NCBI GenBank assembly: GCA_965261545.1
Contig: CBDHDF010000007.1
Span: 224,001 to 288,000 of the forward strand
Length of the DNA stretch: 64,000 nucleotides
Direction: 5' to 3'
From: Bdellovibrionales bacterium
GTDB taxonomy: Bacteria; Bdellovibrionota; Bdellovibrionia; Bdellovibrionales; UBA1609
The position numbers and the translations under genes were made by a program. This document shows, piece by piece, positions 2,756 through 50,800 of this stretch. Position 1 is the first letter of the stretch; the number at the start of each line of letters is the position of its first letter. The notes under the pieces were generated by a model. It was not told the origin of the DNA. It was given only the letters and a program-made list of their open reading frames with translations, and ran no database searches.

Positions 2756-2760
2756 AATAG

Positions 2761-4469
2761 TTACTATGAATCTCCGGGGTAGTTTGGACGCACGAATCCA
2801 CTATCCGTTCTTCGAATTTTTTCAAATGTCCGAGTTTTTAAATCATCCTACATTACATGAAATCATACTTTTTTAACGCTCTAATCCACCTTGGTGCATT
2901 TTTTTTCACCATGAGCTTTTCATAGTCAATTCCAGGGTCTTTGTAGGGGGTGTCATTACTTATGACTGAATAAACAACTCCCATCATTTTGTGACCAACG
3001 GCAATCACTGATCTCTTGTGCCCACGCCTTATAACAAGTGATTGGTATTTGCCTTTGAATTGTGAATTCGTCTTAATAGCACTATTGGCCATCTCACATA
3101 CCAACGATTTCACATATGTGTTCGCTTTCCTCGTTCGTGAAGACTTTTTTTCCTGCGCTCTCATTATTGGATGGGCAAATCCCCATCCAGGAGCAAAAAT
3201 TTCCTTTATTTTTAAAAGACTTCACATTGCCTCCTATTTCTGCAATCAAAAGCGCTGCACTTAATTCGTCAATTCCAGGTATAGTCTGGAGTAGATGCCA
3301 CTGCCTTTCATAGGGTTTCATACGAATGAAAAGTTCTTCTTCAATTTGAGAGCATTCTTTTTTCAAAAAATCTATTCGATCAAGAATGCGTTGAAGAACA
3401 AAACGATTTTCTTCCGTCATCTTTCCCGACAGGGCGTAAGAAAATTCTTCGGTCTTTTGACGTAAAGACCCTCTGGCAAGAGACATCAATTTAGAAACTG
3501 ATCTCTCTCCATTAGCTATGGCACGAATCATGGCCATACCAGATACGCAGTCAGCTTTAGACATTGCATAGGTTAAACGAATGCCTGAATATTCAAGAAC
3601 CTTATACATACGATTTTGTTCCGAAGATATTTGGCGGATCGTTTTTGTACGATAACGAGCCAAAAGTCTAATAGAACGAATCTCACGTGGAGGAATGAAG
3701 CTAGCTCTTAGAAGACCACAAGCACCAAGCTCTGCAATCCACTGGCTATCCAACACGTCAGTTTTTTTACCAGTAATATTTTTGACATGAAAGGCATTGA
3801 TAACATCTACTTCATAACCTTTTTCTGTCAAATCATCGTATAAAGAATTCCAATAAATCCATCCCTGTGCTCTCAAAAAGAACTCTCTCAACCTTATGTG
3901 GCTTCATCCAAGAGCGCATTCTAGGAAAATTTTTTGGAAAATTCTTGAACTCTTTTGTGAAAAACTTCTTCTTACCGTCTTCCACTTTGACAATCGTACA
4001 CATCAACATATGTTGATGAACATCTATTCCACAAACAGAACTATAAATAATATCCACATGACTCCTCCTTTCTGTTAGAAAAAAAGAAGGTGATAAAACT
4101 AGAGCCTTGGGATTTTGCCATAAATTCTAAAGCGAAAATAGGTCAACTTACTATACGTCCATACACTCAGAGTGCAGGTACATGCGTGGGTTCGATCCAA
4201 AGCTCAAGACCATGTTACTTCACGGAATTAAAATTACCAATCTATTCAACGGCCACTCATCTTATCACCTTCCAATAATGTTATTGCTTTATCCTTTATT
4301 GTATCGGAATCATACATGACAAAAATACCATCAAAAGTCCAGAGTAACTAAAAGAGGCCAATTATATAGACCAGCGAAGCTGTCCACCGAGTTGCTTCGT
4401 GCAAAGAAGTGGGGGCCTAGATAAGATTCATGGGCGTGGGTGGGGAAGCAAGGCGCCCCCATGAATGTT
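2761..4469 (-). mobile_element. IS110-family element, copy 1 (recombinase doubly frameshifted)
   Basis: Same sequence as the intact copies except a 4-bp ATCC duplication near 3858 and an A7 rather than A9 tract. AA core at both ends. Confidence 0.95.
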
Positions 4470-4815
4470 ACACATTTTCCATATTGGTGACTTTGGAAGT
4501 ATCCCAACCACTGACATCTGGGTTTGCCTTGATGGCTCCTAAAAACATACCTTTCATATCTTTAACCATAGAGGTGTCCCACCCACTTGTATCTGGATTT
4601 ACCTCAGCGGCATTTCGAAATAAATTCGCCATATCAACAACCTTGGAGGTATTCCAGCTACTTGTATTTGGATTTGCCTTGGTGGTCCCCAAAAACATAC
4701 CTCTCATATCTTTAACCATAGAGGTGTCCCAACCATTCGTATCTGGTATGGCTAAAACAGCTCTGTGAAACATATTTTTCATATTCGTAACAGCTGACAT
4801 ATTTCCTCCAAGGAC
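4470..4815 (-). repeat. 346-bp duplicated fragment of the BspA-repeat gene
   Basis: Matches 8572-8917 and 6521-6866. Confidence 0.95.
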
Positions 4816-6520
4816 TTACTATGAATCTCCGGGGTAGTTTGGACGCACGAATCCACTATCCGTTCTTCGAATTTTTTCAAATGTCCGAGTTTTTAAATCA
4901 TCCTACATTACATGAAATCATACTTTTTTAACGCTCTAATCCACCTTGGTGCATTTTTTTTCACCATGAGCTTTTCATAGTCAATTCCAGGGTCTTTGTA
5001 GGGGGTGTCATTACTTATGACTGAATAAACAACTCCCATCATTTTGTGACCAACGGCAATCACTGATCTCTTGTGCCCACGCCTTATAACAAGTGATTGG
5101 TATTTGCCTTTGAATTGTGAATTCGTCTTAATAGCACTATTGGCCATCTCACATACCAACGATTTCACATATGTGTTCGCTTTCCTCGTTCGTGAAGACT
5201 TTTTTTCCTGCGCTCTCATTATTGGATGGGCAAATCCCCATCCAGGAGCAAAAATTTCCTTTATTTTTAAAAGACTTCACATTGCCTCCTATTTCTGCAA
5301 TCAAAAGCGCTGCACTTAATTCGTCAATTCCAGGTATAGTCTGGAGTAGATGCCACTGCCTTTCATAGGGTTTCATACGAATGAAAAGTTCTTCTTCAAT
5401 TTGAGAGCATTCTTTTTTCAAAAAATCTATTCGATCAAGAATGCGTTGAAGAACAAAACGATTTTCTTCCGTCATCTTTCCCGACAGGGCGTAAGAAAAT
5501 TCTTCGGTCTTTTGACGTAAAGACCCTCTGGCAAGAGACATCAATTTAGAAACTGATCTCTCTCCATTAGCTATGGCACGAATCATGGCCATACCAGATA
5601 CGCAGTCAGCTTTAGACATTGCATAGGTTAAACGAATGCCTGAATATTCAAGAACCTTATACATACGATTTTGTTCCGAAGATATTTGGCGGATCGTTTT
5701 TGTACGATAACGAGCCAAAAGTCTAATAGAACGAATCTCACGTGGAGGAATGAAGCTAGCTCTTAGAAGACCACAAGCACCAAGCTCTGCAATCCACTGG
5801 CTATCCAACACGTCAGTTTTTTTACCAGTAATATTTTTGACATGAAAGGCATTGATAACATCTACTTCATAACCTTTTTCTGTCAAATCATCGTATAAAG
5901 AATTCCAATAAATCCCTGTGCTCTCAAAAAGAACTCTCTCAACCTTATGTGGCTTCATCCAAGAGCGCATTCTAGGAAAATTTTTTGGAAAATTCTTGAA
6001 CTCTTTTGTGAAAAACTTCTTCTTACCGTCTTCCACTTTGACAATCGTACACATCAACATATGTTGATGAACATCTATTCCACAAACAGAACTATAAATA
6101 ATATCCACATGACTCCTCCTTTCTGTTAGAAAAAAAGAAGGTGATAAAACTAGAGCCTTGGGATTTTGCCATAAATTCTAAAGCGAAAATAGGTCAACTT
6201 ACTATACGTCCATACACTCAGAGTGCAGGTACATGCGTGGGTTCGATCCAAAGCTCAAGACCATGTTACTTCACGGAATTAAAATTACCAATCTATTCAA
6301 CGGCCACTCATCTTATCACCTTCCAATAATGTTATTGCTTTATCCTTTATTGTATCGGAATCATACATGACAAAAATACCATCAAAAGTCCAGAGTAACT
6401 AAAAGAGGCCAATTATATAGACCAGCGAAGCTGTCCACCGAGTTGCTTCGTGCAAAGAAGTGGGGGCCTAGATAAGATTCATGGGCGTGGGTGGGGAAGC
6501 AAGGCGCCCCCATGAATGTT
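4816..6520 (-). mobile_element. IS110-family element, copy 2 (A7 frameshift)
   Basis: 1705 bp. ORF split into 5149-6108 and 4908-5219. Confidence 0.95.
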
Positions 6521-6866
6521 ACACATTTTCCATATTGGTGACTTTGGAAGTATCCCAACCACTGACATCTGGGTTTGCCTTGATGGCTCCTAAAAACATA
6601 CCTTTCATATCTTTAACCATAGAGGTGTCCCACCCACTTGTATCTGGATTTACCTCAGCGGCATTTCGAAATAAATTCGCCATATCAACAACCTTGGAGG
6701 TATTCCAGCTACTTGTATTTGGATTTGCCTTGGTGGTCCCCAAAAACATACCTCTCATATCTTTAACCATAGAGGTGTCCCAACCATTCGTATCTGGTAT
6801 GGCTAAAACAGCTCTGTGAAACATATTTTTCATATTCGTAACAGCTGACATATTTCCTCCAAGGAC
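6521..6866 (-). repeat. 346-bp duplicated fragment of the BspA-repeat gene
   Basis: Matches 8572-8917. Part of a 2051-bp tandem unit. Confidence 0.95.
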
Positions 6867-8571
6867 TTACTATGAATCTCCGGGGTAGTTTGGACGCACG
6901 AATCCACTATCCGTTCTTCGAATTTTTTCAAATGTCCGAGTTTTTAAATCATCCTACATTACATGAAATCATACTTTTTTAACGCTCTAATCCACCTTGG
7001 TGCATTTTTTTTCACCATGAGCTTTTCATAGTCAATTCCAGGGTCTTTGTAGGGGGTGTCATTACTTATGACTGAATAAACAACTCCCATCATTTTGTGA
7101 CCAACGGCAATCACTGATCTCTTGTGCCCACGCCTTATAACAAGTGATTGGTATTTGCCTTTGAATTGTGAATTCGTCTTAATAGCACTATTGGCCATCT
7201 CACATACCAACGATTTCACATATGTGTTCGCTTTCCTCGTTCGTGAAGACTTTTTTTCCTGCGCTCTCATTATTGGATGGGCAAATCCCCATCCAGGAGC
7301 AAAAATTTCCTTTATTTTTAAAAGACTTCACATTGCCTCCTATTTCTGCAATCAAAAGCGCTGCACTTAATTCGTCAATTCCAGGTATAGTCTGGAGTAG
7401 ATGCCACTGCCTTTCATAGGGTTTCATACGAATGAAAAGTTCTTCTTCAATTTGAGAGCATTCTTTTTTCAAAAAATCTATTCGATCAAGAATGCGTTGA
7501 AGAACAAAACGATTTTCTTCCGTCATCTTTCCCGACAGGGCGTAAGAAAATTCTTCGGTCTTTTGACGTAAAGACCCTCTGGCAAGAGACATCAATTTAG
7601 AAACTGATCTCTCTCCATTAGCTATGGCACGAATCATGGCCATACCAGATACGCAGTCAGCTTTAGACATTGCATAGGTTAAACGAATGCCTGAATATTC
7701 AAGAACCTTATACATACGATTTTGTTCCGAAGATATTTGGCGGATCGTTTTTGTACGATAACGAGCCAAAAGTCTAATAGAACGAATCTCACGTGGAGGA
7801 ATGAAGCTAGCTCTTAGAAGACCACAAGCACCAAGCTCTGCAATCCACTGGCTATCCAACACGTCAGTTTTTTTACCAGTAATATTTTTGACATGAAAGG
7901 CATTGATAACATCTACTTCATAACCTTTTTCTGTCAAATCATCGTATAAAGAATTCCAATAAATCCCTGTGCTCTCAAAAAGAACTCTCTCAACCTTATG
8001 TGGCTTCATCCAAGAGCGCATTCTAGGAAAATTTTTTGGAAAATTCTTGAACTCTTTTGTGAAAAACTTCTTCTTACCGTCTTCCACTTTGACAATCGTA
8101 CACATCAACATATGTTGATGAACATCTATTCCACAAACAGAACTATAAATAATATCCACATGACTCCTCCTTTCTGTTAGAAAAAAAGAAGGTGATAAAA
8201 CTAGAGCCTTGGGATTTTGCCATAAATTCTAAAGCGAAAATAGGTCAACTTACTATACGTCCATACACTCAGAGTGCAGGTACATGCGTGGGTTCGATCC
8301 AAAGCTCAAGACCATGTTACTTCACGGAATTAAAATTACCAATCTATTCAACGGCCACTCATCTTATCACCTTCCAATAATGTTATTGCTTTATCCTTTA
8401 TTGTATCGGAATCATACATGACAAAAATACCATCAAAAGTCCAGAGTAACTAAAAGAGGCCAATTATATAGACCAGCGAAGCTGTCCACCGAGTTGCTTC
8501 GTGCAAAGAAGTGGGGGCCTAGATAAGATTCATGGGCGTGGGTGGGGAAGCAAGGCGCCCCCATGAATGTT
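6867..8571 (-). mobile_element. IS110-family element, copy 3 (A7 frameshift)
   Basis: 1705 bp. ORF split into 7200-8159 and 6959-7270. Confidence 0.95.
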
Positions 8572-9931
8572 ACACATTTTCCATATTGGTGACTTTGGAA
8601 GTATCCCAACCACTGACATCTGGGTTTGCCTTGATGGCTCCTAAAAACATACCTTTCATATCTTTAACCATAGAGGTGTCCCACCCACTTGTATCTGGAT
8701 TTACCTCAGCGGCATTTCGAAATAAATTCGCCATATCAACAACCTTGGAGGTATTCCAGCTACTTGTATTTGGATTTGCCTTGGTGGTCCCCAAAAACAT
8801 ACCTCTCATATCTTTAACCATAGAGGTGTCCCAACCATTCGTATCTGGTATGGCTAAAACAGCTCTGTGAAACATATTTTTCATATTCGTAACAGCTGAC
8901 ATATTTCCTCCAAGGACTTTCTTAAGGAGAGAATTACCTTTAAATGCACGAGATAGATCTTTCCATCCCATATTGCCAAAATTGACAACCTCGAAGAGTA
9001 AATTTCTTGAAGATACTGAGGTATTTTCAAAGCCCTCACAAGTACCTATTATCCTCATCGTATATTCTCCAGCTTTCGCATAGGTATGTCTCTTGTCAGT
9101 ATCCTGAAAAGATGTCACCTCGCTAACAGCAGTTTGATCTCCCCAATCCACAGTAAAATTATATTTAAGACTTGAACTTTCTTTAAGGGGAAGGGTGAAT
9201 GAAAAATCACCTTCAGGAATACGCCATTTTGTGACAAAGTGATTAATCTCGTTGGTTACGGAGGACTTGGCTACAAAATTGACGTCACTTTGACTTGCCT
9301 TGATAACAGCTGGATGAGATGATATGTCTTGCACATCAAAATTTCCTGAAAACGTGTTGTCTTGTGTGCATGATAAAATCTTTTCTACATTGGGTTCCCC
9401 AATAACAACAGTGACATCTCCAAGGTTGGAATCGCAAGTACCTTTTATGTTATAGTCTGCCATATTGGATGAAGAAATGGCAGACAATTCCTTGAAGCTC
9501 AAATCTATTGGAATGAGAATGAGATTATTATCAACAGTGACACTCTGCTTGTTTCCTTTATGGGTGACCGTAATAGTGGCTTTTTTTGAAGTGATTTGTC
9601 GGGTATCAACATATCCTGAGAAAGTATTGGAACGACAGGGTACTTCTACAGGTTTGGTTATGGGCTCTCCAATAACTATCGAAACATTTCCATTTCCCCC
9701 CAAAGCTGAATGGCAGGCTCCCCAAACAAGATATTCGCTCGCATTGGCTGAAGAAATTGGCAGAAGTGATCCATTGATACTAAGTTTTGTAACACTGAAA
9801 ACCTTTGTCTTTTTTCTATTTGATCCTTTATCACAACCCACAAAAATCATTAGAGATAAAATGAATAAAAAGTGAAACTTTAAATATTTTTTGACTATCA
9901 TGATGAATTTCCTCAAGTTGACATTTTTCAA
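8570..9931 (-). pseudogene. BspA-family (DUF285) repeat surface lipoprotein, truncated at the C-terminus by IS insertion
   Basis: Lipobox-like IFVGC, PKD-like YNFTVDWGD..HTYAKAGEY, ~22-aa repeats WDTSxVxxMxxMF. The stop codon lies at the IS110 junction in mid-repeat. Confidence 0.85.
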
Positions 9932-31078: not shown

Positions 31079-32793
31079 GTAACTATTCAGGGGGTGCTGC
31101 ATTAATTCGAACAATTTTTTTAAAAAAAGTATAAAAATTCTTGACAAGTTTTTGAAGCAAACGACCTCTTTCATTTGTTCTTTATCGAATATGTTCCTGC
31201 ATATGGCTTAAACTCTCTGAGAGCCATAGTATTGAAAGATTGTGAAACATAGGTCGCGGGGGGCACTTCTCATTCCTTTTGCTTCTTAGAACGAATCCTA
31301 GTGCATTTTTTTTAATGAAAAAAAGGCATGTTAATATTTTCATAAGGTAAGTATGAAAATAGAAAATATTGACGTGTCTTCAGCCATAAATAAAATCAGG
31401 AAGCTTCTTAAGAAAGAGAAGTCCCTTTCTCCCGCTTTTATTGTGGCCATTGAGTTGTTGATCAAAATCATCACTATTCTAGTAAATCAAAAAAAATTAA
31501 ATAGTCAAAACAGTAGTATTGCCCCTTCTCAAGATCCGAATGGCCCTAAAAAGAAACCTAAGGAAGAAACTGGTAAGAAGCCAGGAGGACAACCCGGACA
31601 CGAAGGAGCTACTTTAAAACCCGTGGATACTCCAGACAAGGTGGAGTTCATTTCTATTAATAAAGAGGAACTTCCTCCAGGTGATTACATTTCTTCTGGA
31701 GTTGAAAAGCGTCAAGTATTTGAGGTAGACCTTTCTGTGCATGTCACGGAGTATCAAGGAGAAATCCTCGAAGACCAAGATGGGAATCAGTGGGTTGCAG
31801 GTTTTCCAGAAGGAATCAATAACCCAACTCAATATGGCCCTTCTGTGAAAGCTCACTCAGTTTATATGTCCCAGTTTCAGTTAATCCCTCATCTTCGAGT
31901 CGCAAGTTACTTTAATCAATGGGGTCTATCGCTTGCTGGATCTACGGTACACAATTTTAACAAATCTGCCTTTGAGGCTCTGGAAGCTTTTGAGGAGTGG
32001 GCAAAGGAAACTCTTCTGAACTCACCTTTGATTCATGCTGACGAAACTGGAGTGAATGTTAATGGGAAGAGGCTGTGGTTTCACCTCTTGTCCAATGATA
32101 CTGTGGTTCTCTATCAGGTGGACGAAAAAAGAGGCGCAGAGGCTATGGATCGCATGGGAATTCTTCCAAAATACACAGGGATTGTTTGTCATGACCATTG
32201 GAAACCTTATTATACATATACTTCCTGCATTCATGCCCTTTGCAATGCGCACCATTTAAGGGAGCTTCAAAGAGCTTGGGAGCAAGATGATCAAAAATGG
32301 GCAAAAGAAATGAAGTCTCTTTTAGAGACAATAAACAAAGAGGTGCACGATACGCAGAACCAATGCCTTTCACAAGACCGAATTGAATATTACAAAGAGA
32401 AATATCGAAATATTCTCTTCGAAGGGGAAAAGGAATCTCCATTAATGGAGAGGACAGAGAAAAAAAAGAAGGGAAAGGTTAAACAATCCAAATCTAGAAA
32501 TTTACTAGATCGACTGAGAAACTTTGAAGATGATACCTTGCTCTTTATGAAGGACCCCATAGTTCCATTTACGAATAATATAGCAGAAAATGATCTGAGA
32601 ATGACCAAAGTTCAGCAGAAAATATCTGGGTGCTTTCGTTCGTTGATGGGAGCCAAGACATTTTGTAGAAACCGAAGCTTTCTCCTGACTTGCCAGAAAA
32701 ATGGCATAGAACCTAAAGATGCTCTAAATATGCTATTTCAAGGAAAACTTCCCTCATTTATGACTCGAATTCGCCCACCCCCTGAATAGTTAC
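31079..32793 (+). mobile_element. IS66-family element (single-ORF ISBst12 type), intact
   Basis: 18-bp IR GTAACTATTCAGGGGGTG; 8-bp TSD TTTTACTC. Confidence 0.95.
31353..32789 (+). CDS. IS66 transposase TnpC
   Basis: NSQNSSIAPSQD, PGGQPGHEG, HADETG, CNAHHLREL, FTNNIAENDLR, KISGCFRS. Confidence 0.95.
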   Translation: MKIENIDVSSAINKIRKLLKKEKSLSPAFIVAIELLIKIITILVNQKKLNSQNSSIAPSQDPNGPKKKPKEETGKKPGGQPGHEGATLKPVDTPDKVEFISINKEELPPGDYISSGVEKRQVFEVDLSVHVTEYQGEILEDQDGNQWVAGFPEGINNPTQYGPSVKAHSVYMSQFQLIPHLRVASYFNQWGLSLAGSTVHNFNKSAFEALEAFEEWAKETLLNSPLIHADETGVNVNGKRLWFHLLSNDTVVLYQVDEKRGAEAMDRMGILPKYTGIVCHDHWKPYYTYTSCIHALCNAHHLRELQRAWEQDDQKWAKEMKSLLETINKEVHDTQNQCLSQDRIEYYKEKYRNILFEGEKESPLMERTEKKKKGKVKQSKSRNLLDRLRNFEDDTLLFMKDPIVPFTNNIAENDLRMTKVQQKISGCFRSLMGAKTFCRNRSFLLTCQKNGIEPKDALNMLFQGKLPSFMTRIRPPPE

Positions 32794-35370: not shown

Positions 35371-35856
35371 TAGCTATACAACCTGCTTCATTAAGGCCAT
35401 CTCTTATCATCTCTTCTGTCTTTAACATTGAACTGGATAATGGAATTATCAACTCAATAGTGACTGAGTTTGAACTACTTGATTTTAACTTTGCCTTTGG
35501 TTTTGACATAATACCCTCCTTGGTCGTAAGTCCAGCTAAAATAAAGTATCCCAAGGAATAAGGTATTTGTCTACAAATAATTACAGTATATCATTAGCAC
35601 ACCCTAAAATTCACTCGACAATCAGGATTTGAATCATTGAGTGAAACATCATTTATGAATCGAAATTCATGTGTCACTCCCATAGGTGTTCGTGGTTTTT
35701 TTCTAATTTTAATTCCGAATTAATGGAAATACTTTTCAAGCCTCCTTTTTTACATAGAGGGAAGTGGGCGATTTATAAATATTTATAGATGGTATTTTGA
35801 GAAATGGACGCAGATTGACATTTGATATCCACGACAAGCCATGTGTTTTAAGAGAC

Positions 35857-38946: not shown

Positions 38947-39186
38947 TAAGTAAATTAAGAGATTAAACCATGGTTTTTTTATGGGTAAAGTAATGAGGGG
39001 GATAAATCATGGAAATTGAATTATTTTCTTGGTTTTTAATGCGGTAATTCTGCGACGTCGAAATTAGGCCCATTTTCTGTTGAGAAACTCGGATATACCC
39101 CAAAATATCATAGAGAGTCTTCTTCTTGCTTCATTAGCGGCTCACCTCACATCAAGTGTTGTTTTGAGGATAGGAAGAACTAAAGT

Positions 39187-42100
39187 AACATTCATGGGGG
39201 CGCCTTGCTTCCCCACCCACGCCCATGAATCTTATCTAGGCCCCCACTTCTTTGCACGAAGCAACTCGGTGGACAGCTTCGCTGGTCTATATAATTGGCC
39301 TCTTTTAGTTACTCTGGACTTTTGATGGTATTTTTGTCATGTATGATTCCGATACAATAAAGGATAAAGCAATAACATTATTGGAAGGTGATAAGATGAG
39401 TGGCCGTTGAATAGATTGGTAATTTTAATTCCGTGAAGTAACATGGTCTTGAGCTTTGGATCGAACCCACGCATGTACCTGCACTCTGAGTGTATGGACG
39501 TATAGTAAGTTGACCTATTTTCGCTTTAGAATTTATGGCAAAATCCCAAGGCTCTAGTTTTATCACCTTCTTTTTTTCTAACAGAAAGGAGGAGTCATGT
39601 GGATATTATTTATAGTTCTGTTTGTGGAATAGATGTTCATCAACATATGTTGATGTGTACGATTGTCAAAGTGGAAGACGGTAAGAAGAAGTTTTTCACA
39701 AAAGAGTTCAAGAATTTTCCAAAAAATTTTCCTAGAATGCGCTCTTGGATGAAGCCACATAAGGTTGAGAGAGTTCTTTTTGAGAGCACAGGGATTTATT
39801 GGAATTCTTTATACGATGATTTGACAGAAAAAGGTTATGAAGTAGATGTTATCAATGCCTTTCATGTCAAAAATATTACTGGTAAAAAAACTGACGTGTT
39901 GGATAGCCAGTGGATTGCAGAGCTTGGTGCTTGTGGTCTTCTAAGAGCTAGCTTCATTCCTCCACGTGAGATTCGTTCTATTAGACTTTTGGCTCGTTAT
40001 CGTACAAAAACGATCCGCCAAATATCTTCGGAACAAAATCGTATGTATAAGGTTCTTGAATATTCGCATTCGTTTAACATTCATGGGGGCGCCTTGCTTC
40101 CCCACCCACGCCCATGAATCTTATCTAGGCCCCCACTTCTTTGCACGAAGCAACTCGGTGGACAGCTTCGCTGGTCTATATAATTGGCCTCTTTTAGTTA
40201 CTCTGGACTTTTGATGGTATTTTTGTCATGTATGATTCCGATACAATAAAGGATAAAGCAATAACATTATTGGAAGGTGATAAGATGAGTGGCCGTTGAA
40301 TAGATTGGTAATTTTAATTCCGTGAAGTAACATGGTCTTGAGCTTTGGATCGAACCCACGCATGTACCTGCACTCTGAGTGTATGGACGTATAGTAAGTT
40401 GACCTATTTTCGCTTTAGAATTTATGGCAAAATCCCAAGGCTCTAGTTTTATCACCTTCTTTTTTTCTAACAGAAAGGAGGAGTCATGTGGATATTATTT
40501 ATAGTTCTGTTTGTGGAATAGATGTTCATCAACATATGTTGATGTGTACGATTGTCAAAGTGGAAGACGGTAAGAAGAAGTTTTTCACAAAAGAGTTCAA
40601 GAATTTTCCAAAAAATTTTCCTAGAATGCGCTCTTGGATAAAGCCACATAAGGTTGAGAGAGTTCTTTTTGAGAGCACAGGGATTTATTGGAATTCTTTA
40701 TACGATGATTTGACAGAAAAAGGTTATGAAGTAGATGTTATCAATGCCTTTCATGTCAAAAATATTACTGGTAAAAAAACTGACGTGTTGGATAGCCAGT
40801 GGATTGCAGAGCTTGGTGCTTGTGGTCTTCTAAGAGCTAGCTTCATTCCTCCACGTGAGATTCGTTCTATTAGACTTTTGGCTCGTTATCGTACAAAAAC
40901 GATCCGCCAAATATCTTCGGAACAAAATCGTATGTATAAGGTTCTTGAATATTCAGGCATTCGTTTAACCTATGCAATGTCTAAAGCTGACTGCGTATCT
41001 GGTATGGCCATGATTCGTGCCATAGCTAATGGAGAGAGATCAGTTTCTAAATTGATGTCTCTTGCCAGAGGGTCTTTACGTCAAAAGACCGAAGAATTTT
41101 CTTACGCCCTGTCGGGAAAGATGACGGAAGAAAATCGTTTTGTTCTTCAACGCATTCTTGATCGAATAGATTTTTTGAAAAAAGAATGCTCTCAAATTGA
41201 AGAAGAACTTTTCATTCGTATGAAACCCTATGAAAGGCAGTGGCATCTACTCCAGACTATACCTGGAATTGACGAATTAAGTGCAGCGCTTTTGATTGCA
41301 GAAATAGGAGGCAATGTGAAGTCTTTTAAAAATAAAGGAAATTTTTGCTCCTGGATGGGGATTTGCCCATCCAATAATGAGAGCGCAGGAAAAAAAGTCT
41401 TCACGAACGAGGAAAGCGAACACATATGTGAAATCGTTGGTATGTGAGATGGCCAATAGTGCTATTAAGACGAATTCACAATTCAAAGGCAAATACCAAT
41501 CACTTGTTATAAGGCGTGGGCACAAGAGATCAGTGATTGCCGTTGGTCACAAAATGATGGGAGTTGTTTATTCAGTCATAAGTAATGACACCCCCTACAA
41601 AGACCCTGGAATTGACTATGAAAAGCTCATGGTGAAAAAAAATGCACCAAGGTGGATTAGAGCGTTAAAAAAGTATGATTTCATGTAATGTAGGATGATT
41701 TAAAAACTCGGACATTTGAAAAAATTCGAAGAACGGATAGTGGATTCGTGCGTCCAAACTACCCCGGAGATTCATAGTAACCTATGCAATGTCTAAAGCT
41801 GACTGCGTATCTGGTATGGCCATGATTCGTGCCATAGCTAATGGAGAGAGATCAGTTTCTAAATTGATGTCTCTTGCCAGAGGGTCTTTACGTCAAAAGA
41901 CCGAAGAATTTTCTTACGCCCTGTCGGGAAAGATGACGGAAGAAAATCGTTTTGTTCTTCAACGCATTCTTGATCGAATAGATTTTTTGAAAAAAGAATG
42001 CTCTCAAATTGAAGAAGAACTTTTCATTCGTATGAAACCCTATGAAAGGCAGTGGCATCTACTCCAGACTATACCTGGAATTGACGAATTAAGTGCAGCG

Positions 42101-42592
42101 CTTTTGATTGCAGAAATAGGAGGCAATGTGAAGTCTTTTAAAAATAAAGGAAATTTTTGCTCCTGGATGGGGATTTGCCCATCCAATAATGAGAGCGCAG
42201 GAAAAAAAGTCTTCACGAACGAGGAAAGCGAACACATATGTGAAATCGTTGGTATGTGAGATGGCCAATAGTGCTATTAAGACGAATTCACAATTCAAAG
42301 GCAAATACCAATCACTTGTTATAAGGCGTGGGCACAAGAGATCAGTGATTGCCGTTGGTCACAAAATGATGGGAGTTGTTTATTCAGTCATAAGTAATGA
42401 CACCCCCTACAAAGACCCTGGAATTGACTATGAAAAGCTCATGGTGAAAAAAAATGCACCAAGGTGGATTAGAGCGTTAAAAAAGTATGATTTCATGTAA
42501 TGTAGGATGATTTAAAAACTCGGACATTTGAAAAAATTCGAAGAACGGATAGTGGATTCGTGCGTCCAAACTACCCCGGAGATTCATAGTAA
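39187..42592 (+). mobile_element. IS110 copy 4, split by self-insertion of copy 5
   Basis: 5' part 39187-40077 (with a 2-bp deletion near 40066); 3' part 41781-42592 resumes at TAA|CCTATGC. Confidence 0.93.
40076..41780 (+). mobile_element. IS110 copy 5 (A7 frameshift), inserted within the recombinase gene of copy 4
   Basis: Junctions CGTTT-AA-CATTC and ATAGT-AA-CCTAT. Confidence 0.95.
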
Positions 42593-42810
42593 ACTACCCC
42601 GGAGATTCATAGTAACATTCATGGGGGCGCCTTGCTTCCCCACCCACGCCCATGAATCTTATCTAGGCCCCCACTTCTTTGCACGAAGCAACTCGGTGGA
42701 CAGCTTCGCTGGTCTATATAATTGGCCTCTTTTAGTTACTCTGGACTTTTGATGGTATTTTTGTCATGTATGATTCCGATACAATAAAGGATAAAGCAAT
42801 AACATTATTG

Positions 42811-42997
42811 GAAGGTGATAAGATGAGTGGCCGTTGAATAGATTGGTAATTTTAATTCCGTGAAGTAACATGGTCTTGAGCTTTGGATCGAACCCACGCA
42901 TGTACCTGCACTCTGAGTGTATGGACGTATAGTAAGTTGACCTATTTTCGCTTTAGAATTTATGGCAAAATCCCAAGGCTCTAGTTTTATCACCTTC
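42811..42997 (+). ncRNA. Putative bridge RNA (target loop plus donor loop), present in every IS110 left end
   Basis: 11-bp closing stem GAAGGTGATAA/TTATCACCTTC; two internal loops whose strands match target and donor sequences. Transcript boundaries are unknown. Confidence 0.75.
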
Positions 42998-43025
42998 TTT
43001 TTTTCTAACAGAAAGGAGGAGTCAT

Positions 43026-44228
43026 GTGGATATTATTTATAGTTCTGTTTGTGGAATAGATGTTCATCAACATATGTTGATGTGTACGATTGTCAAAGTG
43101 GAAGACGGTAAGAAGAAGTTTTTCACAAAAGAGTTCAAGAATTTTCCAAAAAATTTTCCTAGAATGCGCTCTTGGATGAAGCCACATAAGGTTGAGAGAG
43201 TTCTTTTTGAGAGCACAGGGATTTATTGGAATTCTTTATACGATGATTTGACAGAAAAAGGTTATGAAGTAGATGTTATCAATGCCTTTCATGTCAAAAA
43301 TATTACTGGTAAAAAAACTGACGTGTTGGATAGCCAGTGGATTGCAGAGCTTGGTGCTTGTGGTCTTCTAAGAGCTAGCTTCATTCCTCCACGTGAGATT
43401 CGTTCTATTAGACTTTTGGCTCGTTATCGTACAAAAACGATCCGCCAAATATCTTCGGAACAAAATCGTATGTATAAGGTTCTTGAATATTCAGGCATTC
43501 GTTTAACCTATGCAATGTCTAAAGCTGACTGCGTATCTGGTATGGCCATGATTCGTGCCATAGCTAATGGAGAGAGATCAGTTTCTAAATTGATGTCTCT
43601 TGCCAGAGGGTCTTTACGTCAAAAGACCGAAGAATTTTCTTACGCCCTGTCGGGAAAGATGACGGAAGAAAATCGTTTTGTTCTTCAACGCATTCTTGAT
43701 CGAATAGATTTTTTGAAAAAAGAATGCTCTCAAATTGAAGAAGAACTTTTCATTCGTATGAAACCCTATGAAAGGCAGTGGCATCTACTCCAGACTATAC
43801 CTGGAATTGACGAATTAAGTGCAGCGCTTTTGATTGCAGAAATAGGAGGCAATGTGAAGTCTTTTAAAAATAAAGGAAATTTTTGCTCCTGGATGGGGAT
43901 TTGCCCATCCAATAATGAGAGCGCAGGAAAAAAAAAGTCTTCACGAACGAGGAAAGCGAACACATATGTGAAATCGTTGGTATGTGAGATGGCCAATAGT
44001 GCTATTAAGACGAATTCACAATTCAAAGGCAAATACCAATCACTTGTTATAAGGCGTGGGCACAAGAGATCAGTGATTGCCGTTGGTCACAAAATGATGG
44101 GAGTTGTTTATTCAGTCATAAGTAATGACACCCCCTACAAAGACCCTGGAATTGACTATGAAAAGCTCATGGTGAAAAAAAATGCACCAAGGTGGATTAG
44201 AGCGTTAAAAAAGTATGATTTCATGTAA
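43026..44228 (+). CDS. IS110-family DEDD recombinase (intact, 400 aa)
   Basis: GIDVH / FESTG / KTDVLD (DEDD RuvC-like), TIPGI, SNNESAG serine motif. AGGAGGAG RBS with GTG start. Confidence 0.96.
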   Translation: MDIIYSSVCGIDVHQHMLMCTIVKVEDGKKKFFTKEFKNFPKNFPRMRSWMKPHKVERVLFESTGIYWNSLYDDLTEKGYEVDVINAFHVKNITGKKTDVLDSQWIAELGACGLLRASFIPPREIRSIRLLARYRTKTIRQISSEQNRMYKVLEYSGIRLTYAMSKADCVSGMAMIRAIANGERSVSKLMSLARGSLRQKTEEFSYALSGKMTEENRFVLQRILDRIDFLKKECSQIEEELFIRMKPYERQWHLLQTIPGIDELSAALLIAEIGGNVKSFKNKGNFCSWMGICPSNNESAGKKKSSRTRKANTYVKSLVCEMANSAIKTNSQFKGKYQSLVIRRGHKRSVIAVGHKMMGVVYSVISNDTPYKDPGIDYEKLMVKKNAPRWIRALKKYDFM

Positions 44229-44318
44229 TGTAGGATGATTTAAAAACTCGGACATTTGAAAAAATTCGAAGAACGGATAGTGGATTCGTGCGTCCAAACT
44301 ACCCCGGAGATTCATAGT

Positions 44319-46025
44319 AACATTCATGGGGGCGCCTTGCTTCCCCACCCACGCCCATGAATCTTATCTAGGCCCCCACTTCTTTGCACGAAGCAACTCG
44401 GTGGACAGCTTCGCTGGTCTATATAATTGGCCTCTTTTAGTTACTCTGGACTTTTGATGGTATTTTTGTCATGTATGATTCCGATACAATAAAGGATAAA
44501 GCAATAACATTATTGGAAGGTGATAAGATGAGTGGCCGTTGAATAGATTGGTAATTTTAATTCCGTGAAGTAACATGGTCTTGAGCTTTGGATCGAACCC
44601 ACGCATGTACCTGCACTCTGAGTGTATGGACGTATAGTAAGTTGACCTATTTTCGCTTTAGAATTTATGGCAAAATCCCAAGGCTCTAGTTTTATCACCT
44701 TCTTTTTTTCTAACAGAAAGGAGGAGTCATGTGGATATTATTTATAGTTCTGTTTGTGGAATAGATGTTCATCAACATATGTTGATGTGTACGATTGTCA
44801 AAGTGGAAGACGGTAAGAAGAAGTTTTTCACAAAAGAGTTCAAGAATTTTCCAAAAAATTTTCCTAGAATGCGCTCTTGGATGAAGCCACATAAGGTTGA
44901 GAGAGTTCTTTTTGAGAGCACAGGGATTTATTGGAATTCTTTATACGATGATTTGACAGAAAAAGGTTATGAAGTAGATGTTATCAATGCCTTTCATGTC
45001 AAAAATATTACTGGTAAAAAAACTGACGTGTTGGATAGCCAGTGGATTGCAGAGCTTGGTGCTTGTGGTCTTCTAAGAGCTAGCTTCATTCCTCCACGTG
45101 AGATTCGTTCTATTAGACTTTTGGCTCGTTATCGTACAAAAACGATCCGCCAAATATCTTCGGAACAAAATCGTATGTATAAGGTTCTTGAATATTCAGG
45201 CATTCGTTTAACCTATGCAATGTCTAAAGCTGACTGCGTATCTGGTATGGCCATGATTCGTGCCATAGCTAATGGAGAGAGATCAGTTTCTAAATTGATG
45301 TCTCTTGCCAGAGGGTCTTTACGTCAAAAGACCGAAGAATTTTCTTACGCCCTGTCGGGAAAGATGACGGAAGAAAATCGTTTTGTTCTTCAACGCATTC
45401 TTGATCGAATAGATTTTTTGAAAAAAGAATGCTCTCAAATTGAAGAAGAACTTTTCATTCGTATGAAACCCTATGAAAGGCAGTGGCATCTACTCCAGAC
45501 TATACCTGGAATTGACGAATTAAGTGCAGCGCTTTTGATTGCAGAAATAGGAGGCAATGTGAAGTCTTTTAAAAATAAAGGAAATTTTTGCTCCTGGATG
45601 GGGATTTGCCCATCCAATAATGAGAGCGCAGGAAAAAAAAAGTCTTCACGAACGAGGAAAGCGAACACATATGTGAAATCGTTGGTATGTGAGATGGCCA
45701 ATAGTGCTATTAAGACGAATTCACAATTCAAAGGCAAATACCAATCACTTGTTATAAGGCGTGGGCACAAGAGATCAGTGATTGCCGTTGGTCACAAAAT
45801 GATGGGAGTTGTTTATTCAGTCATAAGTAATGACACCCCCTACAAAGACCCTGGAATTGACTATGAAAAGCTCATGGTGAAAAAAAATGCACCAAGGTGG
45901 ATTAGAGCGTTAAAAAAGTATGATTTCATGTAATGTAGGATGATTTAAAAACTCGGACATTTGAAAAAATTCGAAGAACGGATAGTGGATTCGTGCGTCC
46001 AAACTACCCCGGAGATTCATAGTAA
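44319..46025 (+). mobile_element. IS110 copy 7 (intact)
   Basis: Right junction ATAGT-AA-CTATTCAGGGGG equals the IS66 terminus. Confidence 0.96.
44731..45933 (+). CDS. IS110-family DEDD recombinase (intact, 400 aa)
   Basis: Same protein as 43026-44228. Confidence 0.96.
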   Translation: MDIIYSSVCGIDVHQHMLMCTIVKVEDGKKKFFTKEFKNFPKNFPRMRSWMKPHKVERVLFESTGIYWNSLYDDLTEKGYEVDVINAFHVKNITGKKTDVLDSQWIAELGACGLLRASFIPPREIRSIRLLARYRTKTIRQISSEQNRMYKVLEYSGIRLTYAMSKADCVSGMAMIRAIANGERSVSKLMSLARGSLRQKTEEFSYALSGKMTEENRFVLQRILDRIDFLKKECSQIEEELFIRMKPYERQWHLLQTIPGIDELSAALLIAEIGGNVKSFKNKGNFCSWMGICPSNNESAGKKKSSRTRKANTYVKSLVCEMANSAIKTNSQFKGKYQSLVIRRGHKRSVIAVGHKMMGVVYSVISNDTPYKDPGIDYEKLMVKKNAPRWIRALKKYDFM

Positions 46026-46254
46026 CTATTCAGGGGGTGGGCGAATTCGAGTCATAAATGAGGGAAGTTTTCCTTGAAATAGCATATTTAGAGCATCTTT
46101 AGGTTCTATGCAAAATTTCACCTAGTTTGACCCACCCAATTTCACCTGGTTTGACCCACCCAATTTCACGAAGTTTGACCCACTGAATTTCACCAAACAT
46201 TGACCCACTTAGATCTTCATAGATATTCTTTCTGCGCTACGCATTAACGAGGAG

Positions 46255-47778
46255 GTGTCTATGGGCAAACAAGGTAAGAAAAAAGGAGCAAGAATGATCA
46301 ACAATATTAAGAAATACATAGAGCTTGGACTCAGTTCGAGACAAATAGCTCGAGCTATGGGTGTTAGTCGGAACACTGTGAAGAAGTATGTGAAGGATAG
46401 TCCCGGAGGCCCTAACAGCCGCTCAAAGGGGTCGCATGGGCCCTACCAAGCCCCATGGTCATCCAAGGTGAATTGGACAGATGTTCGCCTCAAGCAAAGC
46501 CTAGGGACTCAATTGGCTCATTACTGGGAGCGACATATTCAGTCCGAGATTGACGGTGTGAGTTATCTTTCTTTTTGGAGAGAGTTTCGTCGGAGGCACC
46601 CAAGTATAAAGCTTGATATGCACCAGACATTCACCCCTGGTGAACGGAGTGAGTTTGACTATAAGGGAAAAGACTCTTGTTTTGGCTATACAGATGCCAA
46701 GACTGGGGAGTTCATCCCATGTCGATTATTTGGAATGATACTTCCATCGAGTCAGTTTTTCTTTCCATGCGCCACATTAACAGAGCAGCGGGAAGATGTT
46801 TTTTCCTCCATAGCTTCTGGTTTTGAGTTTTTTGGTGGTGTGACCGGAACCATTGCTTTTGATAACGCAAAGGTTCAAGTGACAAGAGCTGATACTTATG
46901 ACCCCGATATTAACTCTGAGTTTCACCTCTTGTGTGATCACTACAATGTGGCTCCTTTGGCGATGAGGCCATCTCGCCCCAAAGACAAGAGTCTTATCGA
47001 AAATACCCTTGGAGTCTTTTGGCGCTGGTCTTGGCCCCAGATAAGAGAGCGGCAAATGTATTCTCTAGCAGACATCAACGCTGAGTTGAAGCATTTGGCA
47101 GCTATTTTCAATGATCGTATTCAAAAAAAGTATGGGTTGAGTCGTCGACAGAAGTTTGAATCTTTTGAGAAGTCAAAATTGAATCCTCTTCCTGAAAGAC
47201 GCTATGAGAGTGGATTCTGGAAGCATTCCAAGGTTCATCCGGATTGTCACATTCAATATAACTACAATTTTTACTCTGTTCCTTATAAGCATCGCGGCAA
47301 GAAGTTAGATATTCGTATTAGCCAACAATGCTTGGAGGTTTATTCAGAATTAGAGCGGGTGGCGATACATCACATCCCCCAGGGCAGTCGAGGGCGCTAC
47401 TTTACGACAAAATCTCATCTCCCTGAGTCCCACCGGGCCATTTTAGAGCAAACGCCACAAAATGTACTTAAAGAGGCATCAAGCCTTGGAGAAAGCATTC
47501 ACAAAGTTGCCGAGCGGCTTATCAAAGAGCCTCGCCATCCGCTTATGTATCTTCGTCGTGTTCAGGGGATACTCAATCTAAGAAAACGGTATTCAACAGC
47601 TTCTTTGGAGCAGGCTTGCTCATTTTTTGTAGATGCAGCTTTAAGTGACATTAGGGTTCGTGGAGTTGAGAAAGTTATTTCAGCAAAAAGTCATCGAAAA
47701 GAGGAGCCAAGAGTCTGCCGTCAACCTAATGAAAATTTAAGAGGTTCAGAGCACTGGGAGAATGCTTGCCGCCACTAA
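46255..47778 (+). CDS. istA: IS21 transposase IstA
   Basis: HTH RQIARAMGVSRNTVKKY, PGERSEFDY, FDNAK, PKDKSLIE. Confidence 0.93.
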   Translation: MSMGKQGKKKGARMINNIKKYIELGLSSRQIARAMGVSRNTVKKYVKDSPGGPNSRSKGSHGPYQAPWSSKVNWTDVRLKQSLGTQLAHYWERHIQSEIDGVSYLSFWREFRRRHPSIKLDMHQTFTPGERSEFDYKGKDSCFGYTDAKTGEFIPCRLFGMILPSSQFFFPCATLTEQREDVFSSIASGFEFFGGVTGTIAFDNAKVQVTRADTYDPDINSEFHLLCDHYNVAPLAMRPSRPKDKSLIENTLGVFWRWSWPQIRERQMYSLADINAELKHLAAIFNDRIQKKYGLSRRQKFESFEKSKLNPLPERRYESGFWKHSKVHPDCHIQYNYNFYSVPYKHRGKKLDIRISQQCLEVYSELERVAIHHIPQGSRGRYFTTKSHLPESHRAILEQTPQNVLKEASSLGESIHKVAERLIKEPRHPLMYLRRVQGILNLRKRYSTASLEQACSFFVDAALSDIRVRGVEKVISAKSHRKEEPRVCRQPNENLRGSEHWENACRH

Positions 47779-47859
47779 TCACATAGCCCCGGTGGGTGGT
47801 TCTCAACCACCTAACGGGTCATTTTGACCTCCATAAGAGAGGTCGTATAGGAGAAGAAA

Positions 47860-48588
47860 ATGATTAAACAAACAGAAAATTTATTAGAGATATTAAAAAT
47901 GAGGGGAGTTTTAGCAACCTTGAGCCAGAGGCTCAAAGAAGCTGAGGAGCAGGATCTTGGTTACGAGGACTTTCTAAATGTCATCTTTGAGGACGAAAAA
48001 ATCCATCGTGAAAATCAGAAGGTCTCAAGACTTATCAAAAGAGCAGCTTTGCAGCAAAAAGCAAGCCTTGAGGCCTTTGAAACCAAATCCAACCGAGGAG
48101 TCGATCGAAGAGTTTTGAGTGATCTAGCCCTTATGAGATTTGCTCAAAGAGGTCAAAATATAATTATCTCTGGCCCAACGGGTGTTGGAAAGTCATATTT
48201 GGCTTGTGCCATAGGTAATCACGCCTGTCGCCAAGGTTTTTCCACTCAGTTCTTCAGAATGAATACTCTTGTTGAAAAATTCAACTTAGAAAGAGCCCAG
48301 GGGACATATCTAAACTTCCTTAAAAGGCTAAAATCAGTCTCGATACTTGTGTTGGATGATTTTGGTATCAAGCCCCTTACCTCTAACCAATATCAAGACC
48401 TTTACGATGTGATTGATGAACGAGGCCCTGACCTGAGCCTCATTCTTACAACCCAACTTCCAATAAAAAATTGGAGTGAAGTCATTGAGGATCCCATCGT
48501 TTGTGAAGCTATTATGGATCGCATAACCTCTCAAGCTATCAAAATAGCCATGTCTGGAAGCTCATTTAGGCAGAGAAAGACGATTTAA
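47860..48588 (+). CDS. istB: IS21 helper ATPase IstB
   Basis: GPTGVGKS, LVLDDFG, TTQLP, AIMDRI. Confidence 0.95.
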   Translation: MIKQTENLLEILKMRGVLATLSQRLKEAEEQDLGYEDFLNVIFEDEKIHRENQKVSRLIKRAALQQKASLEAFETKSNRGVDRRVLSDLALMRFAQRGQNIIISGPTGVGKSYLACAIGNHACRQGFSTQFFRMNTLVEKFNLERAQGTYLNFLKRLKSVSILVLDDFGIKPLTSNQYQDLYDVIDERGPDLSLILTTQLPIKNWSEVIEDPIVCEAIMDRITSQAIKIAMSGSSFRQRKTI

Positions 48589-48664
48589 GGAGAATCCATG
48601 CAAAGGCAGACCTTGGAAGACACCATCGGGAGACACTCCATCGGAACTATTGAATCATGTACCC

Positions 48665-48762
48665 GCCAGTTATCCACAAAATTTACCCACGGCAGCGCTG
48701 CGTTGATAGACATCGGGGTCACAGACGCAGCGTCACCATGGATAAATTTGTGGATAACTGGC
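48665..48762. repeat. Long imperfect palindrome with inverted DnaA boxes (shared motif, copy b)
   Basis: GCCAGTTATCCACA...TGTGGATAACTGGC. Confidence 0.85.
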
Positions 48763-50697
48763 TCGCTATTCTCTGCCATTTTGAGCAATGGATTCAACAT
48801 CCCCATTGAAAAACCCTCCATTGAAACCTCAGAAATGGGGAGGGTCGAGATTCTCAATGACAAAGTGGCCAATTTTAGTTGGCATCTAACATTCTGGCAA
48901 ATAAGCCTTAACCCACCGTTGGGACATCGTGACATTGAGGGTGTAAAAGTTACTGAGTCAGCAGAAAAAAGAAGGTTTAAATTGACAAAGTTTGAGCCAC
49001 CGTGAAATTCAAAATTGGACCTCAAATTGACTGACTGAGGGGTGGGTCAAACTTCGTGAAATTCAGTGGGTCAAACTCGTGAAATTCAGCATCTATGCCA
49101 TTTTTCTGGCAAGTCAGGAGAAAGCTTCGGTTTCTACAAAATGTCTTGGCTCCCATCAACGAACGAAAGCACCCAGATATTTTCTGCTGAACTTTGGTCA
49201 TTCTCAGATCATTTTCTGCTATATTATTCGTAAATGGAACTATGGGGTCCTTCATAAATAGCAAGGTATCATCTTCAAAGTTTCTCAGTCGATCTAGTAA
49301 ATTTCTAGATTTGGATTGTTTAACCTTTCCCTTCTTTTTTTTCTCTGTCCTCTCCATTAATGGAGATTCCTTTTCCCCTTCGAAGAGAATATTTCGATAT
49401 TTCTCTTTGTAATATTCAATTCGGTCTTGTGAAAGGCATTGGTTCTGCGTATCGTGCACCTCTTTGTTTATTGTCTCTAAAAGAGACTTCATTTCTTTTG
49501 CCCATTTTTGATCATCTTGCTCCCAAGCTCTTTGAAGCTCCCTTAAATGGTGCGCATTGCAAAGGGCATGAATGCAGGAAGTATATGTATAATAAGGTTT
49601 CCAATGGTCATGACAAACAATCCCTGTGTATTTTGGAAGAATTCCCATGCGATCCATAGCCTCTGCGCCTCTTTTTTCGTCCACCTGATAGAGAACCACA
49701 GTATCATTGGACAAGAGGTGAAACCACAGCCTCTTCCCATTAACATTCACTCCAGTTTCGTCAGCATGAATCAAAGGTGAGTTCAGAAGAGTTTCCTTTG
49801 CCCACTCCTCAAAAGCTTCCAGAGCCTCAAATGTTAGCTGACAATTAAAATGCCCCACCGTCGCCAATGAAAAGTGGCCACTTTTCAGAGGAGGACCTAT
49901 GGTGATTTTTGGCATTGTCAACCGAGACGCATATAATCAATTGATATTACTCATAAAAAGGCTCCGAGCTGATAAGAACTCCTTTTGGGTTCTTGTCGAC
50001 CTGGAAAGGGGCTCCGTGTTGGAGAGTCCTTCCATGACAGCCTATTCAGGTTCCATATTTGTCATTTGTAGACTGTTTCTGGATTTCAATGAGGTTAAAT
50101 ATATAGTCAAGAAAAGCCTGTTTAGGCTGTGCCCATTTTCTAAAGTATTTAAATTCCACAAGATTCCAACATTTGCCTCAATTTTCATGGAATTTCTTTT
50201 TGAAGACAGGCTTCCCTTAAAGCCGTCGCCAATTAAAATGTCCCACTTTCAATATGGAGGTTGTCGCCAATGAAAAGTGACCAATCTTCAGGGAGTGTTC
50301 AAATACTAGACAATGAAGTCTCTTCTTCTGATATAGATACTAAGCTCACAGAGTCCCTCCCTTTTGCAACTCAAAAGGTTAGCAATGAGGAGGATCTTAT
50401 GATTAGTCAATACACTTTCGGCCGCATTCGTGACCTGAGTCACAGTGGTAAAAATAAGACAGAAATATCTCGTGAATTAGGGATCAATCGTAAGACGGTG
50501 CGCAAGTACTGTAAGTCCAACACCCCACCGAAGTACAAGGCGAGGTCCAAAAGAACTCGCCCAGATCCCCTTAATGGATATATGGATCGGGTGCATAGGT
50601 GTTCGTGGTTTTTTTCTAATTTTAATTCCGAATTAATGGAAATACTTTTCAAGCCTCCTTTTTTACATAGAGGGAAGTGGGCGATTTATAAATATTT

Positions 50698-50800
50698 GTA
50701 ACTGTTCAGGGGGTAGCAGAGTTCAAGAGGTAAATTGCTCCTTCTTACCAGAGAAAATATAAATCTCTCTCTGTAAACTCATGCCCCCCTGAATAGATAC
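50698..50800. mobile_element. 103-bp IS66-derived MITE
   Basis: Ends GTAACTGTTCAGGGGG and CCCCCTGAATAGATAC; 8-bp TSD AAATATTT; absent from IS4-D copy 1 (~35776). Confidence 0.9.

Follow-up and report, generated by a model that had tools for sequence, protein, structure and literature searches.

Results

IS110 and IS66 elements in the window

The window, a 64,000-nucleotide stretch of a Bdellovibrionales genome, carries IS110 arrays seated on the ends of IS66 elements. An earlier note on this DNA had named the two families, and profile searches bear the names out: the IS110 transposase corresponds to PF01548 plus PF02371 and matches NF033542 above cut-off, and the IS66 transposase corresponds to PF03050 and matches NF033517 above cut-off. 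The main array comprises four IS110 copies on the forward strand. Copy 1 (39185–40078 and 41778–42592) contains copy 2 (40075–41781) within its gene, so that the pair spans 39185–42592, and both are frameshifted at an A-run. The remainder of the array (42593–46026, forward strand) consists of a short right-end duplication followed by copies 3 (42612–44321) and 4 (44317–46026), which have intact 400-aa genes at 43026–44228 and 44731–45933. Positions 39185–39200 form the outer junction of the array. At the inner junction (46022–46037, forward strand) the right inverted repeat of the targeted IS66 is restored whole. The right part of this IS66 lies on the reverse strand at 46022–49831, in two segments (46022–46119 and 49092–49831) split by IS21 elements, and its left part is found at G000:C7:314877.

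Immediately outside the outer junction, positions 39177–39184 (forward strand) hold one copy of the 8-bp target duplication made by the original IS66 insertion, GAACTAAA. Its partner lies beyond the window at G000:C7:311413 and borders the other end of the same IS66, which is also occupied by IS110 and is now inverted; the pairing is confirmed by 30 uninterrupted host copies that run from the duplication into the partner flank. The targeted element belongs to the ISBst12 group of IS66, with a single TnpC gene, terminal repeats and an 8-bp duplication. An unoccupied, intact single-gene copy of 1715 bp at 31079–32793 (forward strand), encoding 478 aa and flanked by the duplication TTTTACTC, was used as the reference.

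Elsewhere in the window, a second IS110 array (2760–8573, reverse strand) sits on an IS21-cut IS66 end and has three copies, each with a 346-bp flank. Across 2760–8920, IS110 and 346 bp of a DUF285 gene form a unit that is present three times, the right end is joined to a site with which it has only AA in common, and a similar short flank repeat occurs at G000:C7:313124. An IS66 mini-element of 103 bp, free of IS110, lies at 50698–50800 (forward strand) and has variant ends flanked by an 8-bp duplication; its empty site is present in the window at 35774–35781, and six copies share one flank. The IS66 copies at window position 49832 and at G000:C7:390788 are split at one position (893–897), the insert in the window being an IS21 element. 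A 65-bp stretch of the IS110 left non-coding end (44400–44464) is 94–97% identical to part of another multi-copy element found in about 50 places. The A-run of the IS110 gene contains 7, 8 or 9 bases at codons 302–304 (41383–41392 and 43925–43935), of which only 9 keep the frame; the full 400-aa gene is present in 9 genome copies. The relatives P0005, P0006 and P0015 also lose the frame at this site, by slippage control or sequencing error.

IS110 inserts two bases inside the IS66 tip and rebuilds the repeat

Genome-wide, 37 IS110 right ends were classified: 15 adjoin an IS66 repeat, 2 adjoin a repeat that has been cut, 10 abut IS110's own left end and 10 lie at other sites. GTAA is kept at all 37 right junctions and AA at all 44 left junctions. 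Since off-target right junctions and their original sites have AA as their sole common letters, AA (39187–39188, forward strand) is the recombination core; one left junction, G000:C11:702539, is compatible with an AT site instead. The empty IS66 target site has no GTAA after the duplication, and free IS66 ends start with GTAAC, which assigns the outer GT (39185–39186, forward strand), left outside IS110, to IS66 as the first two bases of its right inverted repeat. IS110 thus inserts two bases inside the IS66 tip, at the AA core and with no target duplication, and this 2-nt core is common to its on-target and off-target junctions. The right end of IS110 terminates in GT-AA, so that insertion rebuilds both the complete IS66 repeat and the complete target on the inner side. 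IS66 ends therefore stay intact and can be targeted again, giving tandem IS110 arrays, in agreement with the 10 of 37 right ends that rest on an IS110 left end.

IS110 has non-coding ends of 414 bases on the left and 93 bases on the right, and its RNA-like region is at the left end, not in the long RNA-bearing right end of the IS1111 type. The transposase combines a DEDD RuvC domain with a Tnp domain that has the catalytic serine. Its residues D12, E62, D99, D102 and S299 are invariant or nearly so in 25 sequences, and from what is known of IS621 we take them to be catalytic. A promoter scan found 0 sites, and contigs of four sequencing runs, which are uninformative on circles, contained no circle joint. 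A clean skip of the whole composite in three runs, considered as a possible excision, is explained by other copies of the host element, which is multi-copy and has 30 copies without interruption. A relative at about 85–90% identity in run X6 does not extend over the left end.

Some off-target junctions keep only one donor half, and nested self-insertions and flank duplications also occur. These features agree with the accessible parts of two reports that describe recombination at half-matches and local expansion (10.64898/2026.08.31.748434; 10.64898/2026.08.14.744561). At G000:C2:466049 the left junction falls at a site that already read GTAA and the right end lies on an IS66, which points to rearrangement of this composite by the IS110 enzyme and not by TnpC. 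At G000:C10:1020994 and 1009933, IS110 has inserted into its own predicted bridge RNA, within the donor guide. A 105-bp non-autonomous derivative with the same ends is present in seven copies (G000:C6:3544, C3:20865, C10:576451, C11:725851, C2:233621, C2:289236 and C7:555266), some of them on old IS66 mini-element ends.

A predicted bridge RNA matches the IS66 repeat

An internal-loop pattern search recovered a common layout in the window and in 27 homologous loci. The predicted target-binding loop lies at 39402–39448 (forward strand), with an identical stretch in copy 4 at 44534–44580. Its 5′ guide (39408–39414) is the reverse complement of positions 5–11 of the IS66 repeat (7 nt), and its 3′ strand contains GTAA. 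The predicted donor-loop guide (39502–39508, forward strand) matches the IS110 right end plus core, and among the homologues inspected it changes when the right end does; the donor loop shows a sequence match for one guide only. When loop strands and flanks were permuted among homologues, a set that includes kin and is hence not independent, 0 of 5000 permutations paired the 3′ strand with the left flank as well as the real data (17 de-duplicated loci), and 10 of 5000 did so for the 5′ strand and the right flank (13 loci). Both sides of the stem change at 5 of 8 pairs across 16 loci, evidence that is partly circular because the loop set came from a pattern demanding stems. Two runs of plain folding did not recover the target loop unaided, and the two Rfam matches both lay under the gathering score. 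Occupancy of IS66 ends follows the guide: 15 of 33 GTAACTATTCA ends, the exact matches, carry IS110, as opposed to 0 of 10 GTAACTGTTCA, 0 of 13 GTATCTATTCA and 0 of 7 GTACCTATTCA ends, counts that are not independent since many variant ends are duplicated copies. We predict from these matches that the IS110 target is programmed by a bridge RNA that spells the IS66 repeat.

At 44534–44580 and in homologues (alignment A4), the 5′ loop strand corresponds to the right flank and the 3′ strand to the left. The guide order of IS621 is seemingly opposite to that in the target loop of this IS110. In homologues L032, L037, L040 and L095, the 5′ loop strand is closer to the element's own left end than to the flank, the likeness to the left end reaching 7 letters in L095.

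Likeness of the outer junction to the IS66 end

The outer junction reads GTAACATTCATGGGGG and the right inverted repeat of IS66 reads GTAACTATTCAGGGGG, as the earlier note had reported in describing them as the same 16 bases with one T displaced. The two agree at 15 of 16 letters when two gaps are allowed and at 11 of 16 in register. The note's treatment of the whole outer 16-mer (hereafter the mimic) as an IS110 end is correct for letters 5–16 only: letters 1–2 are IS66's own and letters 3–4 are the recombination core, so IS110 contributes the remaining 12. We estimated chance agreement by fixing GTAA and sampling each of the 12 other letters from its own column in an alignment of the left ends of 25 homologues. 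Fifteen gapped matches were reached in 18 of 200,000 draws and 11 in-register matches in 936 of 200,000; none of the 25 real left ends exceeded 13 gapped matches, and one reached 11 in register. As the random draws and the homologues rarely or never match so well, the likeness exceeds chance, with the reservation that these figures are post hoc. Long tandem arrays and A-runs of differing length are the usual trouble spots of assembly, and no single contig from the sequencing runs covers a complete composite, but an assembly artefact of this repeat-rich genome is a very improbable source of the junction, which recurs with 28 distinct flanks; flanks also match exactly as 8-bp duplications over kilobases.

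Origin of the left-end sequence

The IS110 left end proper (39189–39200, forward strand) consists of C-AT, the motif TCATG and a G-run. It overlaps a hairpin at 39190–39230 (forward strand) whose 9-bp arms, 39190–39198 and 39222–39230, follow the clade layout TCAT...C(A/G)CCC...ATGAA. The left-end motif occurs in 32 of 98 scorable homologue loci, and TCATG, the hairpin layout and a right end of two letters plus AA are clade features found in several phyla next to unrelated flanks; an IS66 gene lies near the IS110 homologue in only 3 of the homologue loci searched. The G-run is not among these features: GGGG follows TCATG in 0 of 25 homologues, and the stem is 9 bp here versus 4–7 bp in those 25. 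A C(A/G)CCC run inside the left end is conserved in 19 of 25, so an internal source for the G-run exists. Most of the mimic is therefore built in, GT being IS66's, AA the core and TCATG the clade motif, and the G-run is the unexplained part, which may stem from templating by the hairpin, from a copy of the repeat or from chance.

That the recombinase itself requires similarity between donor and target, one of the readings offered earlier, does not agree with the homologues. The left end matches the right flank at 7 of 12 positions here and at only 0–4 of 12 in 13 homologues, from which it follows that the recombinase has no need for the likeness. A weaker form, with similarity favoured and not required, stays open.

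A second suggestion, descent of the IS110 end from an IS66 end, holds in part at most. Past the 16 bases, the likeness to IS66 extends along each arm of the hairpin, the outer arm continuing as the left end and the inner arm as the right end. The inner arm scores 12 (homologue maximum 7, n = 25), and the outer arm scores 13.5, a value equalled in 1 of 25 homologues. The left end could have been overwritten by IS66 sequence, through slippage between the two near-direct repeats on either side of an inserted copy or by way of a collapsed mini-IS66, after which letters needed by the recombinase would have been retained. Slippage between the two 16-mers does occur, as two independent hybrid ends attest (G000:C2:856129 and the C2:284802 family). 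The hairpin layout itself is older than the association, being present in relatives of several phyla, which speaks against descent; the reciprocal hybrid, an IS66 repeat joined to an IS110 interior, gave 0 matches, and the conserved C(A/G)CCC run is an internal alternative source of the G-run. Partial overwriting is compatible with the explanation that we prefer below, and we hold it to be possible but somewhat unlikely. The displaced T could alternatively reflect a guide that reads two sequences: the 7-nt target guide would pair along its whole length with the IS66 repeat and could also pair with the left end of its own element if one base were bulged out, which would ease excision or self-insertion. 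The one-base shift is what a bulged guide would produce (39408–39414 against 39189–39194 and 46026–46032), and in 17 homologues the 5′ loop is slightly nearer its own left end than in shuffled pairs (60 of 5000). According to the accessible parts of the respective reports, excision is the slow step of IS621 (PMC13626964) and half-matches are able to drive recombination (10.64898/2026.08.31.748434). Yet the homologue signal is small and comes mostly from one related group, the G-run is left unexplained, and the in-register likeness of 0–4 of 12 in homologues means that such pairing is not required. We consider this dual reading unlikely.

IS110 relatives of 65–80% identity fall outside the DNA comparison of left ends. 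A single-protein scan for close relatives found none, and alignment scans found relatives of 30–48% identity; long matches reached 32–35% at best in 41 and 390 related genomes, and matches on plasmids reached no more than 41%.

TnpC and the outer junction

The earlier note had proposed that the mimic might serve as a second, outer IS66 end through which TnpC moves IS66 and IS110 as one unit. We compared the mimic with 15 different repeats of the ISBst12 type, of which 3 are from this genome and 12 belong to six other elements that have duplications; elements lacking a matched duplication were excluded. In this set C10 and A11 are invariant, T9 is present in 13 of 15, position 7 holds A or G throughout, and positions 13–16 are variable; the two ends of ISDge4 agree on T9 to G12 (PMC12898284, accessible part). 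In register the mimic has T7, C9, A10 and T11 and so breaks positions 7, 9, 10 and 11, two of them invariant. A structure search matched no solved IS66 transposase, and no IS66 relative was found on viral contigs.

Thirteen IS66 copies could be paired by hand through their duplications, unpaired ends being left out: 4 are free, 5 carry IS110 on one end and 4 on both, a split that matches the expectation for independent hits (p 0.71). Duplications outside IS110, for which the note had proposed to search, are present, but they are equally expected under both models because they lie outside IS110 whichever enzyme acted last. Recurrence of a composite at several loci, the other part of that proposed search, was not found: among the 9 duplication-paired IS66 copies bearing IS110, read by hand, no two are alike in configuration and alleles. 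This test of recurrence and linkage is weak because the IS66 alleles are shuffled, three alleles being present in all 8 combinations. Two rare IS110 variants were found on differing IS66 ends or alleles.

Four short elements carry the mimic at either end and are flanked by 8-bp duplications, three of them perfect and one matching at 7 of 8 positions. They lie at G000:C2:618569, C6:99928 and C10:204619 and in a family at C2:345–384 kb (the 7/8 duplication), measure 51, 51, 44 and about 48 bp, and all differ in alleles or breakpoints. The 51-bp form is the exact product to be expected of a deletion in a doubly occupied IS66, from the inner arm of one hairpin to the far outer arm, and double occupancy is the present state of 4 of the 13 paired copies. 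As judged from these sequences, the four elements would fit scars left by the collapse of doubly occupied copies, comparable to the nearly precise excision of Tn10 (as cited in PMC12524634). One IS66 mini-element is a hybrid in which one end is the mimic; it is present in 8 copies, all on one flank and without a duplication. The C2:284802 hybrid was considered as a free chimera and is best read as IS110-made, because its flank itself resembles a donor site.

Use of the mimic by TnpC as an occasional surrogate end, moving IS110 together with IS66 and also the 51-bp elements, would draw on several of these features. The mimic agrees in register with the GTAAC tip and the G-run that IS66 ends have in this genome, the G-run sets both this IS66 and this IS110 apart, and four duplication-flanked elements bear two mimic ends; a perfect copy would be barred by IS110's own motif, and the mimic may represent a compromise. 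The four broken positions weigh against such use, as does the perfect repeat found immediately inside. No two of the short elements are the same, as independent collapses would leave them; the hybrid mini-element with its single flank lacks a duplication; an intact IS66 left end joined to the mimic gave 0 matches; and a repeated composite was not found. We therefore regard joint transposition by TnpC as quite improbable, and we give equally little credence to the corresponding claim that the left end was moulded, as far as its own recombinase permits, into a surrogate IS66 end used by TnpC, with the four short elements as its smallest products.

An insertion shared by three IS110 copies was examined as a sign of joint transposition and set aside: the orientations are opposite at one site, which identifies a hot spot. 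The inserted element, of 1417 bp (G000:C6:288346–289762, many copies), is one that we assign to an IS4-like family from its ends. It has 125 left ends and a hot spot in the IS110 gene, and several insertions lie directly after the G-run of IS66 repeats. A candidate "second IS66" proved to be an abundant IS4-like element and was dropped.

Discussion

We think it likely that the locus is explained by guide-programmed insertion at the IS66 tip, with the repeat rebuilt inside and the outer mimic arising mostly as a by-product that TnpC probably does not use. An IS110-group bridge recombinase would be programmed for the tip of the inverted repeat of a single-gene IS66, its putative bridge RNA reading GT, the AA core and CTATTCA, as the sequence match suggests. 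Insertion with a GT-AA right end would restore the IS66 repeat and the target on the inner side, and intact IS66 ends would be hit again to give tandem arrays. The outer junction would resemble IS66 largely incidentally, two letters being IS66's, two the core and TCATG an inherited clade motif that is close to the TCAG found in ISBst12-type repeats but shifted by one base. For the G-run, an arm of the left-end hairpin, the most likely sources are templating by the conserved C-run or a copy of the repeat next to it. IS110 would then spread by re-targeting new IS66 copies, the mimic most likely going unused by TnpC.

IS4321 interrupts its target repeat. This element and IS5075, both of the IS1111 group, also insert site-specifically into the terminal repeat of another element, of the Tn21 family (PMC5001619; PMC8269217); here, in contrast, the host is an IS66, the layout is that of the IS110 group, and insertion at the tip restores the repeat. 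These and the following comparisons draw on the accessible portions of the cited reports. IS621 and other IS110-group bridge recombinases share the DEDD and Tnp domains (PDB match 8wt6; PMC11208160; PMC13626964), and they have in common with it the great length of the non-coding left end, the pair of guide loops, a 2-nt core and the lack of target duplication. The present element differs in its AA core, in having the long guide on the right-flank side and in rebuilding the whole target, a property at variance with the description of insertion as not regenerating a target (10.64898/2026.08.14.744561). ISEc21, likewise an IS110 whose non-coding region lies upstream, also inserts into members of a different IS family, but it is directed to catalytic codons of IS3 transposases and not to ends (PMC11187229).

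The closest parallel for a left end that resembles the right half of the target beyond the core is ISPpu9 of Pseudomonas putida, whose non-autonomous modules also move with the same ends (PMC12288879). A palindrome is common to its left end and right target half, and mutation of this palindrome left circles forming. The ISPpu9 target is a REP palindrome and not a transposase end, and the accessible part of that report describes no hitch-hiking on a second transposase. Among IS66 elements, those of the ISBst12 group such as ISDge4 share the single gene, the 8-bp duplication and ends that start GT.ACT..TCAG (PMC12898284); the G-run that follows TCAG here is absent from the ends given in the accessible part of the ISDge4 paper and from 12 other ends. 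A literature search of titles and abstract openings returned no IS110 that targets IS66 ends and no end mimicry.

Should TnpC use the mimic after all, this would be molecular mimicry between unrelated transposition systems, of which our literature search found no instance, and an RNA-guided element would home to a transposon tip and ride that transposon's enzyme. On the explanation that we prefer, the locus presents a natural RNA-guided element that parks on the end of another transposon without breaking it and rebuilds its own target as it does so. IS110 on IS66 offers a simple system in which to study how bridge-RNA targets arise and why left ends resemble targets, as in ISPpu9, and our data suggest a testable route, in which the donor motif of the clade was already like ISBst12-type repeats.
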